Shown: positions 2,656 through 6,906 of the stretch, one piece after another | Layout of the letters: each line of letters opens with the position of its first letter | Position numbering within the stretch: the stretch's first letter is position 1 | IMG/VR virus record: IMGVR_UViG_2617270945_000017 | DNA from: a virus | Taxonomy: Duplodnaviria; Heunggongvirae; Uroviricota; Caudoviricetes | Reading direction: 5' to 3' (one strand) | Length of the DNA stretch: 6,906 bases | Program-made: the position numbers and the translations under genes | The notes under the pieces: model-generated | The model's input: the letters and a program-made list of their open reading frames with translations, nothing else | Database searches by the model: none | What the model was told of the DNA's origin: nothing

Positions 2656-3217
2656 TCATATACGAAGGTTTTCGAGAGCCGTTTTCACCGTGCCATCCGA
2701 TTTGATATCACCAAACGGATTCTTGCGGCTTAACAGCAGAGCACGAAGCGCGGTAAGCAACTGGTCGTTTCGCCCCTTCTCCAGGCTGGCACCGGATGCC
2801 TCCACCACGCTGCAAAGCTCCTCCTGCAACATATCAAAGTAGTCATCATCCAGATCGGTGGCAGGTGTGCCGGTCTGGGGGTTACCACGGGTATAAGCCC
2901 CTGGACTCCAGTTCTTCCGCCTGGCGGGTCAGGCACAAAATCTCCCGCGGGTCGTTAGTGCCGACATAGAAATTGCGCACAGGTCTGGTTTCACGAACTG
3001 GTTGCGGTTCCGCCTCCTGCGCTCTCTCAGTCAGGCGCGGGAAATGTCTGCGTGTATCTCCTTCACAACGGTGAGCCACACGCCCACTCTGACGTAACTT
3101 GCTTGCTGACTGCAGAACGCGCTGCCGTGAGTAACCTGCAAAAGCATCCGCAATGTCTCCGGAAGTACACCCCGGATGGGCTTCAATGAATTTCTGAACT
3201 TCATTCAAAAGACTCAT
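2656..3217 (-). pseudogene. Phage early gene split by a frameshift into two fragments (2882..3217 and 2656..2928); N-terminal part looks winged-helix-like
   Basis: ATG at 3217 with GGGGGTGA upstream, 2 nt after the TGA stop of the replication gene. This frame stops at 2882..2884. The +1 frame is open from 2928 to a TGA at 2656..2658 and reads as plausible protein ([30 protein letters not shown]...[14 protein letters not shown]...) with no start codon of its own. A CCCC run at 2898..2901 sits in the overlap. Confidence 0.5.
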
Positions 3218-3219
3218 AA

Positions 3220-4110
3220 TCACCCCCTGAATCCTGCCGGGATCTGGCTGTAGTCCACATTGTCGTAACTGGCTTTGAAGTACGGGTCTTCACGTTTTTC
3301 TGTGTGCGTGCTGACGGACGGCGATAAGCGCAGGGAAAGCTCATCCCATTTTTCCCGCAACTTCGACGGGCTGAGCACGTTACGGCACCAGAACGGATCG
3401 CGGCTGACGCGGCTGTACATCTCGCAGATTTGTTTGTGAGTACGACCATCCTGCACACACATCAGGCGAATTTCGTTTGCCCAGGCTGTCCAGTTAGGTT
3501 CTTTGGGACGAACCACCTCGCCGTCACATTCGGCGGCCTGCTCGTACAGGGCGATGATTTTTTTCCAGAGCCACTGTGCGCAGGTCAAATCATCCTGCGT
3601 TCCCCACTGGCGCTTTTTAGGGCTGAATACAACCGCATCAGGATGGCGAGTTAAAAAATCCTGTTCATCCATCTGCGTGTCCGGTTGCGAAGCGTCCGGA
3701 CGAGAAGGTTTTTTATCTGATGGATCATGTTTTGATTTTACTGACGGATCCCCGCCAGATTCTGACGGGTGAAAACCCGCTTTTTTGCCAGATTTCGACG
3801 CATCAAATTTTGACGGGTCAGATTTTGATGCGTCAGATTTTGACGGGTCAGAATCTGACAGTTGAGAAAATGCCGCTGCCTGAAGCTTCGCAACGTTAAG
3901 CTGATAAACATTCGACGCATTGCGGTTATCCGGTCTTAAGTCAGATTTCGTAATTGCACCTGACGTGCATTGCTCAAGTTTTTTAGCCAGCACAAAACTG
4001 GCTTTTTTATAGCCATTGAAAACCAGCCGTAAGTAGCCAGGTGTTGAGCCAACTTTTCCGGCCAACTCGCCCTGCTGTTCTTTGGTTAAAGAGTCCCAAT
4101 ACGCTTTCAT
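3220..4110 (-). CDS. Replication-initiator-like protein with N-terminal Cro/YdaS-like HTH and an iteron-encoded repeat linker (lambda O-like architecture), about 296 aa
   Basis: ATG at 4110 with GGAGGT 9 nt upstream. The N-terminus MKAYWDSLTKEQQGELAGKVGSTPGYLRLVFNGYKKASFVLAKKLEQCTSGAITKSDLRPD resembles YdaS/Cro-type HTH proteins, including the ...LRPD ending. The middle has pentapeptide repeats (SKSDA/SKSDP/SKFDA) encoded by tandem 15-bp DNA repeats. It sits directly divergent from the repressor. The C-terminal domain was not identified. The 381-aa ORF in the track is an upstream extension. Confidence 0.7.
   Translation of the reverse strand: MKAYWDSLTKEQQGELAGKVGSTPGYLRLVFNGYKKASFVLAKKLEQCTSGAITKSDLRPDNRNASNVYQLNVAKLQAAAFSQLSDSDPSKSDASKSDPSKFDASKSGKKAGFHPSESGGDPSVKSKHDPSDKKPSRPDASQPDTQMDEQDFLTRHPDAVVFSPKKRQWGTQDDLTCAQWLWKKIIALYEQAAECDGEVVRPKEPNWTAWANEIRLMCVQDGRTHKQICEMYSRVSRDPFWCRNVLSPSKLREKWDELSLRLSPSVSTHTEKREDPYFKASYDNVDYSQIPAGFRG
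3737..3862. repeat. Iteron array, putative phage replication origin embedded in the replication gene
   Basis: 15-bp units of form TCAGATTTTGACGGG: four contiguous copies at 3803..3862 (TCAAATTTTGACGGG, TCAGATTTTGATGCG, TCAGATTTTGACGGG, TCAGAATCTGACAGT), two more at 3755..3769 and 3788..3802, and a partial copy near 3737. An AT-rich stretch lies alongside at about 3700..3745. Confidence 0.65.
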
Positions 4111-4112
4111 AC

Positions 4113-4137
4113 AATATGTACCTCCGGTGTACATATT
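4113..4137. promoter_or_regulatory. Palindromic operator candidate overlapping the Shine-Dalgarno and start of the Cro-like gene
   Basis: AATATGTAC-ctccggt-GTACATATT is a perfect 9-bp inverted repeat with a 7-bp spacer. It shares the core TGTAC-N7-GTACA with the sites at 4165..4185 and 4921..4939. Confidence 0.6.
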
Positions 4138-4164
4138 ACATGATTGAAATGAACCTTCAAGATA

Positions 4165-4185
4165 CTTGTACCTTAACGGTACAAG
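4165..4185. promoter_or_regulatory. Palindromic operator candidate overlapping the -35 of the repressor promoter
   Basis: CTTGTACC-ttaac-GGTACAAG is a perfect 8-bp inverted repeat. Candidate repressor promoter on the + strand: -35 TTGTAC (4166..4171), 17 bp, -10 TTTAAT (4189..4194), with the transcription start near the A of the ATG at 4201. Candidate promoter for the Cro-like gene on the - strand: TTGAAG, about 16 to 17 bp, TAATAT. Confidence 0.6.
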
Positions 4186-4200
4186 GGTTTTAATTTCGTT

Positions 4201-4875
4201 ATGAAAACAATCCATGACATCCGGCGGTCTAACGCCAGAAAACTGAGAGATGGTGTTGGCGGGAATTCTTCCTTTGCCACTATGATTGATCGCGAGCCAA
4301 CCCAGACCAGCAGGTTTATGGGAGATGGTGCTACTAAAAATATCGGTGACAGCATGGCACGACACATCGAAAAATGTTTCGACCTACCTGTCGGATGGCT
4401 CGATCAAGAACACCAGACAACGAACATCACAAAAAAACCTGATGTTTCAATCACTAATAAACAAATCACATTAGTCCCTGTCATATCATGGGTACAGGCC
4501 GGAGCATGGAAAGAAGTTGGATATTCTGAGGTTGATTTGAGCACAGCAGAAACGTATCCCTGCCCTGTACCCTGTGGGGAAATGACTTATATCTTGCGGG
4601 TGATAGGTGATTCAATGATTGATGAGTACCGCCCGGGAGACATGATTTTTGTCGATCCTGAAGTACCTGCCTGCCACGGTGACGACGTTATTGCATTGAT
4701 GCACGATACAGGTGAAACCACCTTCAAAAGGTTAATAGAAGATGGGACACAGCGTTATCTCAAAGCGTTAAACCCAAACTGGCCTGAGCCTTACATTAAG
4801 ATCAACGGTAATTGCTCTATAATTGGTACAGTGATTTTCTCAGGAAAACCAAGAAGATACAAAATCAAAGCCTAA
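4201..4875 (+). CDS. CI-like phage repressor with XRE-type HTH and LexA/S24 autopeptidase domain, 224 aa
   Basis: The C-terminal domain carries the S24 Ser-Lys dyad motifs (RVIGDSM... and ...TTFKRL) and WVQAG upstream. The N-terminus has an HTH-like ...IGDSMARHIEKCFDLPVGWLD. The gene is divergent from the Cro-like gene across the operators. There is no Shine-Dalgarno before the ATG at 4201, which fits a leaderless transcript. Confidence 0.85.
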   Translation: MKTIHDIRRSNARKLRDGVGGNSSFATMIDREPTQTSRFMGDGATKNIGDSMARHIEKCFDLPVGWLDQEHQTTNITKKPDVSITNKQITLVPVISWVQAGAWKEVGYSEVDLSTAETYPCPVPCGEMTYILRVIGDSMIDEYRPGDMIFVDPEVPACHGDDVIALMHDTGETTFKRLIEDGTQRYLKALNPNWPEPYIKINGNCSIIGTVIFSGKPRRYKIKA

Positions 4876-4887
4876 TCAATGTTTATG

Positions 4888-4911
4888 AACCTGCTTCGGC
4901 AGGTTTTTTTA
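4888..4911 (+). terminator. Rho-independent terminator after the repressor gene
   Basis: AACCTGC-TTCG-GCAGGTT is a 7-bp GC-containing stem with a UUCG loop, followed by a run of seven T. It starts 13 bp after the repressor TAA. Confidence 0.85.
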
Positions 4912-4914
4912 TAC

Positions 4915-4947
4915 TTGACAATGTACCTTTGAGATACATAATGTACC
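4915..4947 (+). promoter_or_regulatory. Near-consensus sigma-70 promoter with an embedded operator copy (PL-like)
   Basis: -35 TTGACA (4915..4920), 16-bp spacer, -10 CATAAT (4937..4942). The spacer contains ATGTAC-ctttgag-ATACAT (4921..4939), the same TGTAC-N7-(G/A)TACA motif as the two operators at 4113..4185. A second ATGTACC follows at 4941..4947. Confidence 0.65.
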
Positions 4948-5119
4948 CAAGAGAAACAACGAACAGGCAGGACGCCCACGAAGTAGCCGCCTGGGGCATA
5001 TGAAGTCCAGGATGATTCGTTGAGTCATGTTGTGCCACTAGGCACTCATGTTAAAGCAGGTGTATGAAATGAAAGTCCAGATTTTAAACAATAACTGTGA
5101 AGTCGTTTGGGCGTAAAAC

Positions 5120-5326
5120 ATGACCGCGCGTAGACCAAGGGAGGAAAAAGTGGGAATAGTTAGAAATCAAGCAGATATATTGAAAATCAGCTCTGAATTG
5201 CTTGGAGTTTTGAAAAGTGAGCTCACCGCACATGGCATCGAGCCCACTGACGAAAATTTAAGTTGGGTTTTGTCGATTATTCAACAATCACTCAAGCCCA
5301 GCCTCAGCAAACTTTTTATCGAGTAG
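5120..5326 (+). CDS. Small hypothetical protein, 58 to 68 aa; start ambiguous between ATG 5120 and GTG 5150
   Basis: GTG at 5150 is preceded by AGGGAGG with a 5-nt spacer. ATG at 5120 has no Shine-Dalgarno but lies 3 nt after the stop of a 15-codon ORF (5069..5116) that has a good AGGTG site, so translational coupling is possible. No homology recognised. Confidence 0.45.
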   Translation: MTARRPREEKVGIVRNQADILKISSELLGVLKSELTAHGIEPTDENLSWVLSIIQQSLKPSLSKLFIE

Positions 5327-5479
5327 TGCTTCGAACTTATCGTAAAGCTTGCTTATGTCGTCTATCGGGTTTTCTGACGTACTGTAATTTTTATCTGATG
5401 TCATGGCAGCAGTCTGATATGCAGTGTGTGTCTTAACCGATAGTTGGAATAAATAAAGAATTTTTTCTTCTTTGGTCAT
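5288..5479 (-). CDS. Small hypothetical protein, 63 aa, AT-rich, convergent with and overlapping the previous ORF
   Basis: ATG at 5479 with AAGGA about 8 nt upstream gives MTKEEKILYLFQLSVKTHTAYQTAAMTSDKNYSTSENPIDDISKLYDKFEALLDKKFAEAGLE. Its 3' end overlaps the ORF 5120..5326 by 39 bp. No homology recognised. Confidence 0.45.
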   Translation of the reverse strand: MTKEEKILYLFQLSVKTHTAYQTAAMTSDKNYSTSENPIDDISKLYDKFEALLDKKFAEAGLE

Positions 5480-5770
5480 AACTATTTCCTTCTTGGCTAT
5501 ATGAAAACACCAAGATACCACCGAGCCTGAAGTGGTGAAAAGACAGGCACATAACAGCTAAGTATTTTCAACCAGAGAGAATCCTTAGCGTTGTGGTGAA
5601 TGCGGCTCAGCGCACGCGGGTTAAGGTTGAGGCTGACAGTCGACCTTCTGTGGATACCCACCCGCCTGGTGTGCAACCTTCGCCAGGCACCGGGAGGCAC
5701 CCGGTACCACAACTTTATGCTGTGTGTAGTCCTCGCGGTACCAGTTTGTACACTTGCTTCCGGCTGGTAT

Positions 5771-5870
5771 CGCTCTTTTTACAAAACAGAGAAGAACATC
5801 ACCGGACGACGGGCTCATAACCCAATCCATCCGGGCGGCAGTCACCGCAGGTGTTCTTCTCTGTTTTGTG
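5771..5870 (+). promoter_or_regulatory. boxA-like motif followed by a long perfect hairpin in the leader of the downstream operon
   Basis: CGCTCTTTTTACAA at 5771..5784 resembles the boxA consensus (CGCTCTTTA / TGCTCTTTAACAA). ACAAAACAGAGAAGAACA at 5781..5798 is the exact reverse complement of 5852..5869, giving an 18-bp perfect stem around a roughly 50-nt loop. It ends about 35 nt before the Shine-Dalgarno of the CDS at 5918. Confidence 0.4.
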
Positions 5871-5917
5871 GAGAAACCAACCGACCTTGCAGGGTCGATA
5901 TGATGAGGAGCAGCAAA

Positions 5918-6280
5918 ATGGCTAGCGAACGCAGTACTGATGTGCAGGCATTTATCGGGGAGCTGGACGGCGGCGTATTTGAAACCAAAATCGGCGCAGT
6001 TCTCAGTGAAGTCGCTTCCGGTGTGATGAACACGAAAACCAAAGGTAAGGTCTCACTCAACCTGGAAATCGAACCATTTGATGAGAACCGTGTGAAAATC
6101 AAACACAAACTCTCATATGTTCGCCCGACTAACCGCGGGAAAATTTCCGAAGAAGACACCACCGAAACGCCGATGTATGTCAATCGCGGTGGTCGCCTGA
6201 CTATTCTGCAGGAAGACCAGGGACAGTTACTGACTCTTGCCGGTGAACCTGACGGAAAACTCCGCGCAGCAGGTCGTTAA
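5918..6280 (+). CDS. Conserved hypothetical prophage protein, 120 aa (possibly YfdP-like, recalled from memory only)
   Basis: ATG at 5918 with GAGGAG 7 nt upstream gives MASERSTDVQAFIGELDGGVFETKIGAVLSEV... The long upstream extension of the 226-aa ORF in the track is Arg/Cys/Leu-rich and lies in the GC-rich structured region, so I treat it as non-coding. Confidence 0.7.
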   Translation: MASERSTDVQAFIGELDGGVFETKIGAVLSEVASGVMNTKTKGKVSLNLEIEPFDENRVKIKHKLSYVRPTNRGKISEEDTTETPMYVNRGGRLTILQEDQGQLLTLAGEPDGKLRAAGR

Positions 6281-6345
6281 TATCGTTTTTAATTAACTGA
6301 TTATTTATCTCATCACTGAATATCTTTATATAGTGAGGACTTATT

Positions 6346-6906
6346 ATGTCTCAGAACTTAGACGCAACCGCAATTAATCAAATCCATGCCCTTATTTCTG
6401 CTCAGGGTGTTAATGAAATTATCAGTAAGATTGGTGCCGATGCTGTGGCATTGCCTGAGAATTTCCGCATTCATGATCTGGAAAAATTTAATTTAAATCG
6501 CTTCCGTTTCCGTGGTGCGCTTTCCACTACCAGCATCGATGACTTTACCCGTTATTCTAAAGATCTTGCAGATGAAGGCACCCGCTGCTTTATCGATGCT
6601 GATAATATGCGTGCCGTCAGTGTGCTTAACCTGGGTACTATTGATGAACCAGGTCACGCAGATAACACCGCCACTCTCAAACTGAAAAAGACAGCACCGT
6701 TCTCTGCTCTGTTGTCTGTTAACGGCGAGCGTAACTCCCAGAAGTCACTGGCAGAATGGATTGAAGACTGGGCCGACTATCTTGTGGGCTTTGATGCTAA
6801 TGGTGACGCTATTCAGGCAACAAAAGCGGCTGCGGCAGTCCGTAAAATCACGATTGAAGCAAACCAGACCGCTGATTTTGAAGATAATGACTTCAGCGGC
6901 AAACGC
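6346..6906 (+). CDS. Conserved hypothetical prophage protein, 3'-partial, runs off the window (possibly YfdQ/DUF2303-like, recalled from memory only)
   Basis: ATG at 6346 with GTGAGGA 5 nt upstream. The frame is open for 187 codons to the window end: [48 protein letters not shown]... Confidence 0.75.

Follow-up and report, generated by a model that had tools for sequence, protein, structure and literature searches.

Genes and promoters of the immunity region

The window (the whole 6,906-nucleotide stretch of DNA that we analysed) is the ymfK(cohE)/ymfT(croE) immunity region of e14/SfV-type lambdoid prophages. The window matches phages of the e14/SfV/SfIV type at 98-99% and has matches in 2778 of 5426 E. 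coli genomes (about half of complete genomes). On E. coli chromosomes the genes are annotated ymfK (LexA-family) and ymfT (YdaS-family helix-turn-helix), and in phages SfV, SfIV, cdtI and Stx2c the same genes are annotated cI and cro. In a five-way alignment of the window, K-12, SfV, phage Ayreon and an O128 strain, mean column identity is 97%. The e14 element of K-12 MG1655 (NC_000913.3, about 1202176-1203224) shares the gene order, is base-identical over window positions 4050-4375, exhibits no differences in the five-way alignment at the operator-like sites, the terminator and the PL promoter described below, and diverges in sequence to the right of about 5020. SfV (U82619) and SfIV (KC814930) are 98-99% identical to the window over the repressor gene, the spacer and PL, with a few operator-spacer changes and one half-site change, GTACA to ATACA, in OR1. 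The system is already known: the SfV GenBank record (2002) annotates cI, cro, a terminator and a "putative operator region" corresponding to window 4116-4184, and the leaderless start of ymfK was mapped in 2014. To this the analysis adds a map of five operator-like sites, backed by comparison with relatives; otherwise the results on the switch are of little importance.

The rightward gene of the region (4201..4875, plus strand) encodes a 224-aa CI repressor of the ymfK/cohE type, and proteins 100% identical to it are present in E. coli genomes. The C-terminal part is a Peptidase_S24 domain (Pfam PF00717, E = 1.5e-26), and a BLASTP alignment with residues 105-234 of lambda CI places VQAG (A100-G101), GDSM (S138) and TFKR (K176) in register: that is, the repressor, like lambda CI, carries an Ala-Gly cleavage site and a Ser/Lys dyad. 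The N-terminal domain, unlike the C-terminal domain, is without detectable similarity to lambda CI. Residues 1-92 contain no Pfam domain, even at E = 10, residues 1-75 match the N-terminal DNA-binding domain of SPC32H Rep (5d50; E = 5e-4), and the N-terminal part has matches to PHROG repressor families. We rejected assignment of the protein as a homologue of HK022 CI: the S24 domain alone aligns, and the operator spacing differs, with the HK022 CI operators (TGAAC-N5-GTTCA, TGTAC...GTAC) having a similar pentamer at a separation of 5 nt, as compared with 7 nt here.

The putative repressor promoter (PRM-like; 4166..4194, plus strand) comprises a -35 element, TTGTAC (4166-4171), a 17-nt spacer and a -10 element, TTTAAT (4189-4194), with the start at 4201. 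The -10 element is followed by 6 nt (TTCGTT) and then by the ATG at 4201, with no purine-rich Shine-Dalgarno sequence. In all 17 loci compared below, the distance from -10 element to ATG is constant and the 6 nt vary freely. A leaderless repressor mRNA, proposed in the earlier note on this DNA from the short distance between the -10 element and the ATG and the lack of a Shine-Dalgarno sequence, agrees with published dRNA-seq data for K-12. Romero et al. (2014) reported five leaderless mRNAs in E. coli K-12, ymfK among them (PMC4681348), and in Table S3 of that work the ymfK start coincides with the opening base of the reading frame, genome position 1202156, with a leader of 0 nt (PMC4681348). 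Because the window is identical to K-12 over the start region, the K-12 result transfers directly, and the 5'-end mapping that the earlier note had proposed as a check is thus in the literature already, with the start at the equivalent of 4201 and not well upstream of it. The repressor gene is followed by an intrinsic terminator (4887..4913, plus strand) composed of a hairpin (4887-4906; -11.6 kcal/mol, z = -3.9) and a T-run, present in relatives and annotated in SfV and Ayreon. Beyond the terminator lies a PL-like early-left promoter (4915..4942, plus strand) with TTGACA (4915-4920), 16 nt and CATAAT (4937-4942), matching 11 of 12 consensus positions, with both hexamers invariant in the 17 loci; a PL-like promoter is likewise annotated in the phage Ayreon record.

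The divergent gene (3220..4110, minus strand) is a helix-turn-helix gene of the cro/ymfT type, of which the first 61 of 66 codons remain and run on in frame into the 3' part of a replication gene. The Cro-like protein has weak matches to YdaS and HTH_3 and a match to PHROG 35 (transcriptional repressor). A blastn comparison with an intact prophage (L003), in which window positions 3927-6906 correspond to 5925-8904 and window positions 2890-3928 correspond to 3691-4729, indicates that 1195 bp are missing in the window, at junction 3927/3928. The deletion takes the five final codons from cro (ymfT) and the 5' end from the replication gene, along with ymfL and a DUF4222 gene, and its product is a 296-aa in-frame Cro-replication fusion. 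In K-12 e14, unlike in the window, ymfT is intact (66 aa) and is followed by ymfL and ymfM, and in SfV and SfIV, which are functional phages, cro is likewise intact. The window thus has no intact cro followed by ymfL and replication genes, and the earlier note was wrong to describe its switch as complete. To the left of the fusion are a PerC-like remnant, a pinE-type invertase and an IS5 transposase, and this left-hand arrangement is shared by no complete E. coli genome. We conclude that the window is, as judged from its sequence, a decayed prophage remnant that has retained repressor, OR and OL. With Cro present as a fusion, the switch may not function in the window.

The predicted cro promoter, PR (4133..4160, minus strand), has a -35 element, TTGAAG (4160..4155), a 16-nt spacer and a -10 element, TAATAT (4138..4133). 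It matches 8 of 12 consensus positions, under the scanner threshold of 9, and its -10 element (ATATTA on the plus strand) and the TTG of its -35 element (CAA on the plus strand) are conserved in relatives. From the position of these elements, the cro transcript is expected to start near 4125-4128, equivalent to K-12 1203006-1203009; the supplement searched lists no published start sites for ymfT or ymfJ. The sequence CCTCC (minus-strand GGAGG) occurs at 4121-4125, 10 nt ahead of the cro ATG at 4110 and within the first of the palindromes considered next.

Five operator-like sites on three promoters

Direct reading of the sequence bears out the two perfect palindromes sharing TGTAC-N7-GTACA that had been described in the divergent region: AATATGTAC-CTCCGGT-GTACATATT at 4113-4137, with arms of 9 bp, and CTTGTAC-CTTAACG-GTACAAG at 4165-4185, with arms of 7 bp. 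The third copy described, ATGTAC-CTTTGAG-ATACAT at 4921-4939, is likewise present, with one mismatch, inside the promoter spacer past the repressor terminator. The count of three is, nonetheless, an undercount: two copies, at 4150-4166 (TGAACCTTCAAGATACT) and 4942-4958 (TGTACCCAAGAGAAACA), had been missed, and a repeat finder, used independently, places 4148-4166, 4920-4938 and 4940-4958 in one family (D1). The sites are best described as five operator-like 17-mers of the form TGTACC-N5-GGTACA, three in a candidate OR and two in a candidate OL, each a putative target of a DNA-binding protein.

For scoring of the sites we used a symmetrised weight matrix built from relatives alone, with the window excluded, on their OR3 and OL1 sites. 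OR1 (4117..4133; TGTACC-TCCGG-TGTACA; 15.4 bits) has no mismatches to the core motif and overlaps the last base of the predicted PR -10 element, the predicted PR start and the cro Shine-Dalgarno sequence. OR2 (4150..4166; TGAACC-TTCAA-GATACT; 9.2 bits), the degenerate copy that belongs to repeat family D1, covers the PR -35 element and is centred at -43 from the repressor start. OR3 (4167..4183; TGTACC-TTAAC-GGTACA), a perfect copy, sits between the -35 and -10 elements of the repressor promoter and has the highest score in the window, 25.4 bits. OL1 (4922..4938; TGTACC-TTTGA-GATACA; 22.4 bits) lies in the PL spacer, and OL2 (4942..4958; TGTACC-CAAGA-GAAACA; 14.5 bits), a weaker copy, lies over the predicted PL start, at about 4949 in the window and about 1202185 in K-12. 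The corresponding positions in K-12 (NC_000913.3) are 1203001-1203017 for OR1, 1202968-1202984 for OR2, 1202951-1202967 for OR3, 1202196-1202212 for OL1 and 1202176-1202192 for OL2. The best match to the matrix is thus OR3, on the repressor's own promoter, and not OR1; were affinity to track the matrix, the sites would fill in an order different from that in lambda. The ranking is, however, partly circular, since OR3 and OL1 of the relatives served to train the matrix.

The motif is in excess in the window. With up to two mismatches allowed, TGTACN7GTACA has 7 matches in the window versus 2.03 expected, a number reached in 2 of 200 shuffles; five of the seven matches fall within 4117-4958, and four of these five are operator sites. 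Two copies have zero mismatches, as compared with about 0.007 expected for each (our own arithmetic, 6906/4^10). The weight matrix gives six matches of at least 8 bits, all inside 4117-4958, as compared with a mean of 0.095 and a maximum of 2 in 1000 shuffled versions of the window. The sixth match (4566-4582; 9.5 bits) is weak and intragenic, lying in the repressor coding sequence, and consists of a left half-site alone.

To define the conservation of the sites we collected repressor homologues of 73-88% identity from 16 other enterobacterial genera or species in a genome scan and aligned the resulting 17 loci (window included) on the repressor ATG, without using right half-sites to locate the sites. 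Upstream of the repressor gene, all 17 loci exhibit the layout TGTACCTCC-NN-(T/G)(G/A)TACA, then, 33 bp on, TGAACC-N5-G(G/A)(T/C)ACT, then, abutting, TGTACC-N5-GGTACA, then the -10 element. Downstream of the repressor gene, all 17 exhibit the terminator followed by TTGACA-A-TGTACC-N5-G(G/A)TACA-TAA-TGTACC-N5-... The spacings are fixed, at 33 bp for OR1-OR2, 17 bp for OR2-OR3 and 20 bp for OL1-OL2. Across the 17 loci, half-sites are 95-99% conserved, as compared with about 49% (range 35-71%) for the N5 spacers of OR3 and OL1. Conservation of the right half-sites is 94-100% in OR3 and OL1, except at a single G/A position of OL1 (71%), and that of the OR3 spacer is 35-71%. In OR1, TGTACCTCC and TACA are invariant, a left-half conservation that is confounded by the cro Shine-Dalgarno sequence. 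In OR2, ATGAACC is invariant in an ungapped alignment and most of the 17 loci have GGTACT as the right half, with the conserved CAAG of the spacer confounded by the PR -35 element. In OL2, the left half is always 20 bp from OL1, and the right half is poorly conserved (41-82%).

The same pattern is observed at the population level. In a set of 86 loci whose repressors are essentially the same, polymorphism affects 7 of 60 half-site positions, versus 14 of 25 spacer positions (Fisher p = 4e-5), and at OL1, in 85 loci of the same immunity, every one of the five spacer positions varies and the 12 half-site positions are all without polymorphism. Conserved half-sites with drifting spacers are the signature of a sequence-specific dimeric DNA-binding protein and not of an RNA stem, and we read the sites accordingly as probable protein-binding sites. 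As the earlier note had proposed, the arrangement is of the OR/OL type: several copies of one dyad-symmetric site overlap core elements of PR, the PRM-like promoter and PL, the motif thus being present on all three promoters, and the layout recurs in all 17 loci, with half-sites kept and spacers drifting.

The likeness to lambda extends to many features of the layout. As in lambda, there are divergent back-to-back promoters with three 17-bp operators, one of them on the repressor's own promoter; relative to the repressor start, the middle operator is located at about -42/-43; PL, which has operators within it, lies beyond the repressor gene and in the same orientation; and the repressor mRNA starts at the AUG. 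The differences from lambda, for which the spacings, counts and positions of the operators are general knowledge, are that the operator sequence is unrelated, that centre-to-centre spacings are 33 and 17 bp here and 24 and 23 bp in lambda, that there are two OL sites here and three in lambda, and that rexAB, N, cII and cIII are missing here. Phages of the SfV/SfIV type are without N, cII and cIII (PMC3851460).

A proposed repressor switch and its alternatives

According to the hypothesis that we favour, the region is an e14/SfV-type lambdoid immunity switch in which a CI-like repressor acts on the five operators, a reading to which we assign a probability of roughly 0.85. Dimers of the repressor (YmfK/CohE), each subunit having an N-terminal domain putatively of helix-turn-helix type and a C-terminal self-cleaving LexA/S24 domain, would bind the 17-bp operators, with consensus TGTACC-N5-GGTACA. 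Occupancy of OR1 (PR -10 element and start) and OR2 (PR -35 element) would switch cro off, and occupancy of OL1 (promoter spacer) and OL2 (start site) would switch PL off. From the position of OR3 between the hexamers of the repressor promoter, auto-repression is expected at high repressor concentration. OR2, at -43 beside a weak -35 element (TTGTAC), occupies the position used by lambda CI to activate PRM, which makes positive autoregulation plausible. The repressor mRNA begins at the A of the ATG and would be translated as a leaderless message. Upon DNA damage, RecA-assisted cleavage at Ala100-Gly101 would release both early operons, after which these operators would serve the Cro-like protein in closing down the repressor promoter.

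One element of this proposal is expected to differ from lambda. OR2 and OR3 abut with no gap, their centres being 17 bp apart (about 1.6 helical turns), as compared with 23-24 bp between operators in lambda, which renders lambda-style pairwise cooperativity between OR2 and OR3 doubtful. The abutting sites present four half-sites in 34 bp, and, because the N-terminal domain of the repressor resembles that of SPC32H Rep, a tetrameric binder, the geometry may be that of a tetramer on a composite site instead of that of pairwise cooperativity.

Evidence for the proposal comes also from transcriptional co-regulation in K-12. The "YmfT iModulon" of K-12 comprises, in addition to sulA and recN, e14 genes that flank ymfK on either side, and is active in strains without Fur or under peroxide stress. 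The co-regulation of e14 genes from both sides with SOS genes fits an SOS-cleavable repressor that holds both early operons. The "YmfT iModulon" may be, more simply, the regulon of YmfK, the SOS-cleavable repressor.

The earlier note had allowed that the palindrome at 4113-4137 could act as an mRNA hairpin in place of, or in addition to, acting as a DNA operator, and the alternative that the palindrome is mainly such a hairpin in cro mRNA, hiding the GGAGG and the start codon, is the first of those considered. Transcribed in full, the palindrome would give a minus-strand RNA (4145 to 4096) with a hairpin of 15 pairs and -14.2 kcal/mol in which the Shine-Dalgarno sequence is enclosed and the AUG paired (z = -2.6; equalled by 4 of 200 shuffles), and the arms of the palindrome reach past the operator core (repeat pair I5). 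The hairpin folds well, however, only if transcription begins upstream of 4143, and the only plausible PR -10 element (TAATAT, 4138..4133), conserved in relatives, falls inside the upstream arm, so that the transcript should start near 4125-4128, without that arm. RNA from 4126 folds at -1.9 kcal/mol, which shuffles equal. In addition, the extension of the arms beyond ATATT is lost in relatives, the flanks change without consistent covariation, and the motif has four further copies, of which OR2 and OL2 are incapable of forming hairpins. We consider the hairpin reading unlikely.

A second alternative is that the sites bind the Cro-like protein or another factor and not the S24 repressor, or that 4165-4185 is a terminator or insulator between the divergent genes. 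The evidence presented here ties the sites to no single protein, and a terminator scan flags 4165-4185 together with GGTTTTAATT, with an RNA of -11.5 kcal/mol and z = -3.3. Against a terminator or insulator, 4165-4185 is upstream of both starts (repressor, 4201; predicted PR, near 4126) and hence is expected in neither transcript, and the half-site sequence itself, and not just its complementarity, is invariant while the loop or spacer drifts. On these two grounds, position upstream of both starts and sequence conservation beyond pairing, we rejected 4165-4185 as an intrinsic terminator. Against the reading with another protein, the lambdoid switches characterised so far all have, to our knowledge, operators common to CI and Cro, and both operons are co-regulated with SOS genes, which fits a cleavable repressor. 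We judge this second alternative very unlikely in either form. A chance origin of the motif in AT-rich intergenic DNA, for which it might be argued that short GTAC-containing palindromes are common and that one weak extra match lies inside the repressor gene (4566-4582), is already refuted by the shuffle controls for the matrix, by the invariance of site positions across the 17 loci and by the deficit of half-site polymorphism.

The searchable literature yielded no binding data (EMSA, footprint or ChIP) for YmfK or YmfT; Allison 2002 (SfV) and Mehta 2004 (e14) fell outside that search. Operator sequences are likewise absent from the SfIV paper, the gSELEX papers, PRECISE-1K and Reg-Seq. The operator map, with its K-12 coordinates, is precise and testable, and could seed a binding-site entry for YmfK/YmfT.

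A structured RNA in the PL leader

In addition to the operator-like sites, the region downstream of PL contains a 73-nt three-way-junction RNA (4954..5026, plus strand), about 5 nt past the predicted PL transcript start, with stems P1 (4959-4963/5016-5020), P2 (4966-4968/4974-4976) and P3 (4990-4994/5007-5011). The element is conserved in K-12 e14, in SfV and in about half of the diverged relatives. RNAalifold yields a three-way junction, with compensatory changes in 9 of 13 pairs. A covariance model recovers 79 copies, 72 of them distinct; in an alignment of the 72 fitted to the model, 96.2% of cells are paired and 10 of 13 pairs have compensatory changes. In controls, 0 of 500 shuffles reach the observed values, and slid controls give 21-47%. 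A search of Rfam gives no match at the operators or the PL leader, and only a sub-threshold STnc100 match elsewhere.

HK022 offers a parallel in position: in HK022, which is without N, the RNA element putL lies directly after PL. We rejected the PL-leader RNA as a homologue of put, since the covariance model finds none of HK022 putL, HK022 putR and HK639 putL at E up to 10. By BLAST, the PL-leader RNA and HK022 have only chance matches of 7-8 nt; put, which consists of two stem-loops, shares with the PL-leader RNA only the short strings CGAAC(A)GGC and GGAUGA. Given that these phages are without N and that the SfV record annotates a terminator inside the early-left operon, a put-like, RNA-only antiterminator is a reasonable hypothesis. 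The more specific proposal, that the element represents a second and independent class of cis-acting RNAs by which RNA polymerase is modified (protein-free processive antitermination), taking the place of N/nut in this phage group, is tentative, and we regard it as possible but rather doubtful. If the element, which is found in many N-less lambdoid phages, were an RNA-only antiterminator, it could matter more than the switch.

The element recurs, with heavy covariation, in dozens of lambdoid phages that are without N and have unrelated repressors. In ST64B, SPN3UB, ZF40, YeP1 and mEp237, whose repressors are unrelated, it is always just downstream of a cI-like gene; in ST64B, SPN3UB, ZF40 and YeP1, as in the window, it is located directly after PL. 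It is observed also in the terminal repeat of T5-like Providencia phages.

A conserved RNA at the start of the predicted early-left transcript

The 5' end of the transcript predicted for the early-left promoter PL corresponds to a conserved 73-nt RNA (4954-5026, + strand) that has a three-way-junction fold with strong covariation. Among its 72 distinct copies, 96% of alignment cells are paired, and compensatory changes are present at 10 of the 13 pairs. Copies lie 3' of PL in many N-less lambdoid phages, that is, phages lacking the lambda antiterminator protein N, whose repressors are unrelated, and are found also in T5-like Providencia phages. Rfam gave no match at 4954-5026, and a model built from the RNA and run on HK022 and HK639 did not detect the put antiterminator RNA of either phage. 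We consider the PL-leader RNA a candidate cis-acting antiterminator.

Repressor starts and operator-like sites in other phages

The unrelated or distantly related cI-like genes of ST64B (L111 689), YeP1 (L116 726), and a Comamonas locus (L024 2501) also have a -10-like hexamer 6-7 nt 5' of the ATG and no Shine-Dalgarno sequence, suggesting that leaderless repressor mRNAs may be general across this phage group. HK022 has its own OL and OR (L110 820-880 and 1640-1700), with TGAAC-N5-GTTCA and TGTAC...GTAC sites; the HK022 operator pentamer resembles the e14-type pentamer, whereas the spacing is 5 nt in HK022 and 7 nt in the e14 type. Comparison of the N-terminal domains of the HK022 and e14-type repressors detected no similarity. 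Within the repressor coding sequence of the window, an operator-like half-match, TGTACCCTGTGGGGAAA (4566-4582, + strand; 9.5 bits), contains the left half-site only and could reflect chance or coding constraint.

Deletion, gene fusion, and minor matches

Relative to intact prophages, the window has a 1195-bp deletion, with its junction at 3927/3928, that removed ymfL and a DUF4222 gene and joined codons 1-61 of cro (ymfT) in frame to the replication gene's 3' portion, giving a fusion ORF (4110..3220, - strand). Left of the switch, all on the - strand, are an IS5 (InsH-type) transposase (115-1107), a pinE-type invertase (2044-2634), and a PerC/YfdN-like remnant (2882-3223); since none of the complete E. 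coli genomes has this arrangement, we regard the window as probably the remnant of a prophage eroded by IS elements, which may come from Shigella or a near relative.

Tandem GAC/TTTTGA-rich repeats (…GATTTTGACGGGTCAGATTTTGATGCGTCAGATTTTGACGGGTCAGAATCTGAC…; 3738-3860, both strands) lie within the replication-gene remnant, code for a low-complexity stretch, DPSKSDASKSDPSKFDASKS, and may be iteron-like. A mir-5880 match to these repeats is spurious. In the Rfam search of the whole window, a sub-threshold match to the sRNA STnc100 (5560-5782, + strand; E = 5e-6; 39.5 bits, where the gathering cutoff is 47) sits 5' of a yfdP-like gene, and its CACCGGGAGGCACCCGG hairpin is well matched.
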